Positions 44,841 to 45,209 of a stretch of 64,000 nt of DNA are shown here, one piece after another. The notes below the pieces were generated by a model, which made no database searches, was not told the origin of the DNA, and worked only from the letters and a program-made list of their open reading frames with translations. The stretch lies in the NCBI RefSeq assembly GCF_003334765.1, contig NZ_QOWT01000001.1. One strand, 5' to 3'. The first letter of the stretch is position 1. Every line of letters begins with the position of its first letter. A program made the position numbers and the translations under genes. This DNA comes from Escherichia coli (GTDB lineage Bacteria > Pseudomonadota > Gammaproteobacteria > Enterobacterales > Enterobacteriaceae).

Positions 44841-44923
44841 CAACGCCATCAAAACATTGACTTTTATCGCCGTAGCCTTTTCAATAAAGGTCTTTTGAAG
44901 AGTACCAAAAGGTAACGCAAGCA

Positions 44924-44968
44924 ATGAATGCTGCTATTTTCCGCTTCTTTTTTTACTTTAGCACCTGA
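44924..44968 (+). CDS. pheM: pheST operon leader peptide (Phe-rich, 14 aa)
   Basis: ATG AAT GCT GCT ATT TTC CGC TTC TTT TTT TAC TTT AGC ACC TGA encodes [14 protein letters not shown], with 5 Phe in 14 residues. Confidence 0.9.
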
Positions 44969-45015
44969 ATCCAGGAGGCTAGCGCGTGAGAAGAGAAACG
45001 GAAAACAGCGCCTGA

Positions 45016-45041
45016 AAGCCTCCCAGTGGAGGCTTTTTTTG
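45016..45041 (+). terminator. pheST attenuator terminator
   Basis: Hairpin agcctccc-agtg-gaggct followed by T7. Confidence 0.8.
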
Positions 45042-45209
45042 TATGCGCGTTTTGAAAAATAAAAAGCCTGTCTCATCAGGTGTAATTGTCGCAGCCAGAC
45101 TGGACACGGCCAGCGCGGAGAAACCGGAGCGTATTTAAGTACGTGAGAATTTCGAGCACAGCCCGGGACCAAAATGGCAAGTAAAATAGCCTGATGGGAT
45201 AGGCTCTAA

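Follow-up and report, generated by a model that had tools for sequence, protein, structure and literature searches.

The pheM leader region of an Escherichia coli chromosome segment and its alternative RNA structures upstream of pheST

A very short reading frame rich in phenylalanine codons stands in front of pheST, the genes for phenylalanyl-tRNA synthetase (PheRS), and is followed closely by a hairpin and a run of T residues. Is this a leader peptide whose translation decides whether transcription continues into pheST? The frame lies within a 64,000-nucleotide stretch of E. coli DNA, referred to here as the window. A preliminary description had placed a 14-codon open reading frame (ORF) with five Phe codons and, about 45 nt after it, a GC hairpin with a T7 tract within the range 44906-45045 upstream of pheST, and had read the arrangement as attenuation by ribosome stalling. 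Translation of the window locates the ORF at 44924-44968 (+), with an ATG start and 14 sense codons. Codons 6, 8, 9, 10, and 12 encode Phe (44939-41, 44945-53, and 44957-59, + strand). The stop codon ends at 44968, 45 nt before the terminator stem starts at 45014, and the T7 tract occupies 45034-45040. A probable Shine-Dalgarno sequence, AAGG, was read from the sequence at 44909-44912 (+), 11 nt 5' of the ATG, and the context AAGGTAAC-GCAAGCA-ATG around the start is near-invariant in Enterobacterales. The range originally proposed takes in the ribosome-binding region as well as the ORF and its terminator, and all the features described were recovered at their stated places.

The two strands of the window together contain 757 ATG mini-ORFs of 8 to 30 codons. 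Of those flagged for at least five Phe residues or an FFF run, this ORF had the highest Phe density (5 of 14 codons). Five Phe residues are also reached at three other places in the window, in longer mini-ORFs, and Phe richness by itself is therefore not decisive.

The region from 44700 to 45400, used as a 701-nt query, shows 100% identity with many E. coli chromosomes, and the same query matched the pheM region in all 5,426 complete E. coli genomes. At exactly the coordinates of the ORF, RefSeq annotates a coding sequence, "pheM: pheST operon leader peptide PheM" (WP_001386830.1), together with a feature named "Phe leader region." The position is that of pheM (b1715) in K-12 MG1655, between rplT and pheS-pheT-ihfA. 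Downstream, the ORFs of pheS (45252-46235, +), pheT (46250-48637, +), and ihfA (48642-48941, +, 3' of pheT) were confirmed by the RefSeq annotation of a 100% identical record, mapped by offset, giving the gene order thrS-infC-rpmI-rplT-pheM-pheS-pheT-ihfA. A possible difference from K-12 in the gap between pheM and pheS was considered and rejected, as the gap is 283 nt in both. Two of the matches to the pheM region are plasmid-borne.

The RNA is likewise recognized as a leader. Rfam model RF01859 (Phe_leader) covers 44918-45042 over its full length (model positions 1 to 125 of 125) and scores 75 bits (gathering score, 55), with E values of 3e-12 when 3 kb was searched and 7e-11 for the whole 64-kb window. 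The 125-nt leader has a minimum free energy (MFE) of -53.7 kcal/mol, compared with -32.1 ± 3.6 kcal/mol in 200 dinucleotide-preserving shuffles (z = -5.96), none of which folded to so low an energy. Base for base, the segment is the annotated pheM leader and attenuator, in support of the ribosome-stalling interpretation. Subthreshold Rfam matches to mir-5444 (both strands) and Dicty_Class_I_RNA were dismissed as chance, at 22 to 23 bits against thresholds of 90 and 41.5. Elsewhere in the window, the enterobacterial small RNA (sRNA) family STnc540 (RF02082) matches at 48883-49041 (+) with 67.4 bits against a threshold of 38, overlapping both the ihfA 3' end and the spacer to the next ORF (49042), and the family ES036 (RF02751, CssrF sRNA) matches at 27933-27975 (-) and 20787-20829 (-) (55.5 and 42.9 bits, respectively; threshold, 37.6).

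We folded the leader RNA and obtained three structures, numbered by the segments that pair. The protector (1:2; 44933-45009, +) is part of the MFE structure of the free leader and is the counterpart of the outer helix in the Rfam consensus. Its main helix pairs the Phe-codon segment 44933-44956 with 44986-45009 in helices of 12, 7, and 3 bp and encloses two small helices (44958-62 with 44978-82 and 44964-67 with 44972-75); folded as an isolated segment, the protector has an energy of -34.5 kcal/mol. The attenuator terminator (3:4; 45014-45040, +) was found by a terminator scan, in the MFE structure, and as the terminator helix of the Rfam model. It consists of a 10-bp stem with five GC pairs, formed by GAAAGCCUCC (45014-45023) and GGAGGCUUUU (45028-45037) around the loop CAGU, and the T7 tract overlaps the end of its 3' arm. 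It lies 212 nt 5' of the pheS ATG and has an energy of -14.4 kcal/mol in isolation. At its MFE, the free leader folds into protector plus terminator.

The antiterminator (2:3; 44974-45023, +) emerged from constrained folding. Its core pairs GGAGGCU (44974-80), a copy of the sequence of the terminator 3' arm, with AGCCUCC (45017-23), and it is extended by AG/CU (44981-82 with 45012-13) and GCGU/GCGC (44984-87 with 45008-11), for an isolated energy of -17.0 kcal/mol. Because it crosses the protector and shares the 5' arm of the terminator, it excludes both. The preliminary description had made its interpretation depend on an alternative pairing that overlaps the ORF. This holds for the protector, which pairs 44933-44967 with 44972-45009, but not for the antiterminator proper (44974-44987 with 45008-45023), whose 5' arm begins 6 nt 3' of the pheM stop codon.

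Which structure forms in the nascent transcript depended on where a ribosome was placed. The ribosome was represented by an assumed footprint of -15 to +12 around the A-site codon, held unpaired, and the cotranscriptional choice was modeled solely by ending the transcript at 45027, 5' of the terminator 3' arm. With the A site at F6, F8, F9, F10, or F12, the antiterminator had a probability of 0.93 to 0.97; with no ribosome, or with the ribosome at the stop codon, its probability was 0.00 and the protector formed instead. In this folding check, which the preliminary description had proposed, the structures are thus mutually exclusive, with the outcome set by ribosome position. In the full-length leader at equilibrium, the terminator was always kept, even under the ribosome masks. 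The switch must therefore be kinetic and cotranscriptional, as in the classic model.

To survey other species independently of the leader, we located pheS in species-representative genomes by a degenerate pattern inside the gene (codons 29 to 39), which gave 120 loci. A pheM-like mini-ORF, ..IFRFFFYFS[AT], was present in 85 of these, 220 to 570 nt 5' of the pattern, and in each species where it occurs it occupies the same position upstream of pheS. It was found in all Enterobacterales loci with enough upstream sequence, in genera including Citrobacter, Enterobacter, Salmonella, Pantoea, Erwinia, Pectobacterium, Yersinia, Serratia, Hafnia, Photorhabdus, Xenorhabdus, Proteus, Morganella, and Budvicia, as well as in the Orbales Gilliamella (L021 and L067) and Zophobihabitans (L023). 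Loci lacking the mini-ORF are mostly from Pasteurellaceae, where the 700 nt upstream contained no convincing Phe-rich mini-ORF and no F-R-FFF-like run. The scanned PheS motif is shared by the Pasteurellaceae loci L004, L009, L015, L016, L024, L025, L028, L033, L039, L051, L053, L056, L060, L074, L079, L080, and L082, among others, and several Pasteurellaceae loci have chance ORFs with four to six Phe residues.

An alignment of 81 distinct Enterobacterales leaders (A2), which omits the three leaders from Gilliamella and Zophobihabitans, preserved all three structures. Protector and terminator were paired in 92.7% of alignment cells, against 45 to 66% when the 3' partner was slid by one to three columns, and the antiterminator in 93.0%, against 29 to 57% when slid. 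The GCCTCC/GGAGGC core of the terminator did not vary in the 81 leaders. In a shuffle control for the antiterminator, 216 of 500 shuffles reached the observed percentage of paired cells. Changes on both sides of a protector pair occurred at five pairs only, the clear compensatory case being columns 28/97, with CG in 23 sequences and UA in 22. Since the leader is nearly invariant, covariation is weak, and the sequences vary too little to support a statistical claim of covariation; the comparative support is conservation, not compensatory change. When each of the 81 leaders was folded separately under the same ribosome masks, the switch was predicted in 80. For upstream sequestration of the terminator 5' arm, the median probability was 0.22 with no ribosome, 0.96 with the ribosome at the Phe codons, and 0.22 with the ribosome at the stop codon.

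Upstream of the leader, rplT ends in an intrinsic terminator of its own (44812-44840, +), read from the sequence as the stem AGAGGGAG/CUCCCUCU with loop CUAGU, followed by UUUUCGUUU. Its hairpin folds at -17.0 kcal/mol (ViennaRNA, 44805-44845), and its GAGGGAGC..CTCCCTCTTTT motif is kept 5' of the leader in other species. The consensus scan did not report 44812-44840. This terminator sets the rplT transcript apart from the pheM leader.

Just beyond it lies a candidate promoter for pheM-pheST (44857-44885, +), with a -35 element TTGACT (44857-44862), a 17-nt spacer, and a -10 element TTCAAT (44880-44885), from which transcription would be expected to start at about 44890-44897. A consensus promoter scan of 44400-45400 returned no sigma-70 site; it missed this candidate because the scan demands an A at position 2 of the -10 element, which TTCAAT does not have. 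In view of that result, we offer the promoter as an inference from sequence and conservation only. Of 82 distinct upstream regions in other species, 45 have a comparable arrangement, TTGACn followed after 16 to 18 nt by a -10-like hexamer. At five survey loci (L006, L011, L012, L018, and L021) from Photorhabdus, Yersinia, Rosenbergiella, and Gilliamella, the leader lies close behind the rplT terminator, and the TTGAC-17-TTCAAT promoter of E. coli and its close relatives is not recognizable. Transcription of the leader may take another route in these genera, such as read-through from rplT. In E. coli strain 4750 (NZ_CP103589.1; match H33), the match begins at query base 147, equivalent to window position 44846, and the annotation under the match includes an IS481-like ISKpn28-family transposase; an insertion sequence element appears to lie just 5' of the candidate pheM promoter in this strain.

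These observations can be arranged into the following proposed sequence of events. Transcription would start just 3' of the rplT terminator, and a ribosome would translate the 14 codons of pheM. When Phe-tRNA(Phe) is abundant, the ribosome would reach the pheM stop codon, where it would either cover the start of the antiterminator arm or be released, allowing the Phe-codon segment to re-pair with 44986-45009 as the protector. In both cases, AGCCUCC (45017-23) would be left free to pair with GGAGGCU (45028-45034), and the resulting terminator hairpin, together with U7, would stop RNA polymerase before pheS. When little charged tRNA(Phe) is available, the ribosome would stall at the Phe codons (44939-44959) and keep the 5' strand of the protector single-stranded, so that GGAGGCU (44974-80) would pair with AGCCUCC (45017-23) once the latter is transcribed. 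With the antiterminator formed, the terminator could not form, and transcription would enter pheST. Because PheRS itself makes Phe-tRNA(Phe), such a loop would be homeostatic.

The same hairpin and T7 tract could also be read as no more than a terminator or insulator acting constitutively between the rplT and pheST units, with the Phe-rich ORF an untranslated product of chance that senses nothing. The three other mini-ORF places in the window that reach five Phe residues by chance fit such a reading, as does the presence of the terminator in every equilibrium fold of the full-length RNA. Against it, rplT already has its own terminator at 44812-44840, and ..IFRFFFYFS[AT], the start codon, and the AAGG context are retained across Enterobacterales and Orbales. 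The Phe codons, moreover, sit exactly in the strand whose masking flips the fold, and the Rfam leader model is matched end to end. We give the constitutive terminator hardly any chance of being the right explanation.

The leader might instead act mainly after transcription, with the protector serving as an RNase III substrate that sets the stability of pheST mRNA and codon-dependent termination playing a secondary part. RNase III cleaves the pheM attenuation structure in vitro, and the wild type degrades the downstream transcript faster than an rnc mutant does (PMC5371410); a protector with helices of 12, 7, and 3 bp has sufficient length for a double-stranded RNA substrate. The RNase III-dependent site was reported at K-12 coordinate 1799278, in the pheM-rplT intergenic region (PMC5371410). 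This coordinate maps by offset to about 44916 (+) in the window, 8 nt 5' of the pheM ATG, and the site therefore lies at the base of the leader structures. Against a mainly posttranscriptional role, the study that described the cleavage itself treats it as an extra layer on a known attenuator (PMC5371410), and the conserved Phe codons and the competing GGAGGCU copy would be left unexplained; we consider it very improbable. The element in the window is almost certainly the E. coli pheM leader and ribosome-mediated transcription attenuator controlling pheS-pheT(-ihfA). Our identification draws on sequence identity, annotation, in silico structures with their dependence on ribosome position, and conservation across species, and the response of the attenuator in vivo is inferred or taken from the literature.

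Between the T tract of the attenuator and pheS, the pheST 5' untranslated region of this strain also contains a 147-bp imperfect palindrome (45060-45206, +). It has terminal inverted repeats AGCCTGTCTCATCAGG and CCTGATGGGATAGGCT, folds as RNA into one long imperfect hairpin (-55.7 kcal/mol), and carries no RefSeq annotation. The palindrome is absent from about 645 of the 5,426 complete E. coli genomes (about 12%), which cover only 79% of the 701-nt query; in the alignment with one of them, strain B20105 (L003), the missing stretch of about 145 nt corresponds to 45060-45206. E. coli genomes have a median of five copies of the repeat and up to eight. The RSA repeat of the original K-12 annotation is listed with a length of 150/151 bp and six copies (table in PMC5172473), and by fit of length and copy number the 147-bp repeat is probably RSA. 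Copies were sought in the pheS loci of other species and elsewhere in the window, and none turned up outside E. coli. Between species, the leader ATG and the pheS pattern lie from about 220 to 565 nt apart, as seen at the loci L058 (Yersinia thracica), L012, L106, L059, L005, L014, L118, L040, L032, and L048, and the spacer between attenuator and pheS seems to accept insertions repeatedly; the repeat, being absent from the pheS loci of other species, is not the filler of their variable spacers. We think it unlikely that the 147-bp repeat affects how stable the read-through pheST mRNA is or how it is processed or translated. If it did, the same attenuator would give a strain-dependent output of PheRS.

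The pheM attenuator is already known, its mechanism dates from the 1980s, and the element is already present in RefSeq and Rfam. The original descriptions of the pheST attenuator are reportedly those of Fayat et al. in 1983 and Springer et al. in 1983 and 1985. The significance of our analysis is therefore limited to correct annotation: the window is an E. coli chromosome segment with the thrS-infC-rpmI-rplT-pheMST-ihfA cluster, and its leader-peptide attenuator could be recognized from raw sequence at the stage of the preliminary description. Published accounts agree with this assignment. pheM has been described as a Phe-rich leader peptide whose region forms overlapping stem-loops, with two alternative structures, one that terminates transcription and one that lets it proceed into the PheRS genes (PMC5371410, citing Trudel et al. 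1984). The attenuator of pheMST, a system described as attenuation controlled, has been used in reporter constructs (PMC3831192).

In leader sequence, gene order, and annotation, the element is identical to the K-12 pheM (b1715)/pheST-ihfA attenuator, with no difference. The match to RF01859 is less uniform in detail: alignment is poor at the central small hairpins, where posterior probabilities are low, and the consensus peptide of the family, MKNILFFFAFFFTFP, differs from the pheM peptide. The RF01859 consensus presumably reads like the pheL leader peptide. The pheL-pheA leader shares the architecture of pheM, namely, a short Phe-rich ORF, a protector over the Phe codons, and a AAAGCCUCC..GGAGGCUUUUUU terminator, but the gene downstream of pheL is that of a biosynthetic enzyme, pheA, whereas pheM precedes an aminoacyl-tRNA synthetase, pheST. 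The same distinction applies to the enterobacterial leaders trpL, hisL, thrL, leuL, and ilvL. In each, as in pheM, the position of the ribosome picks between 1:2 plus 3:4 and 2:3, but the regulatory codons are others and the operons are mostly biosynthetic rather than those of a tRNA synthetase. No T-box family match was found in the 64-kb window at Rfam gathering thresholds. The T-box of Firmicutes pheS follows a shared logic, in which antitermination upstream of pheST is the response to a shortage of charged tRNA(Phe); unlike pheM, T-box RNAs bind uncharged tRNA directly and require no leader peptide.
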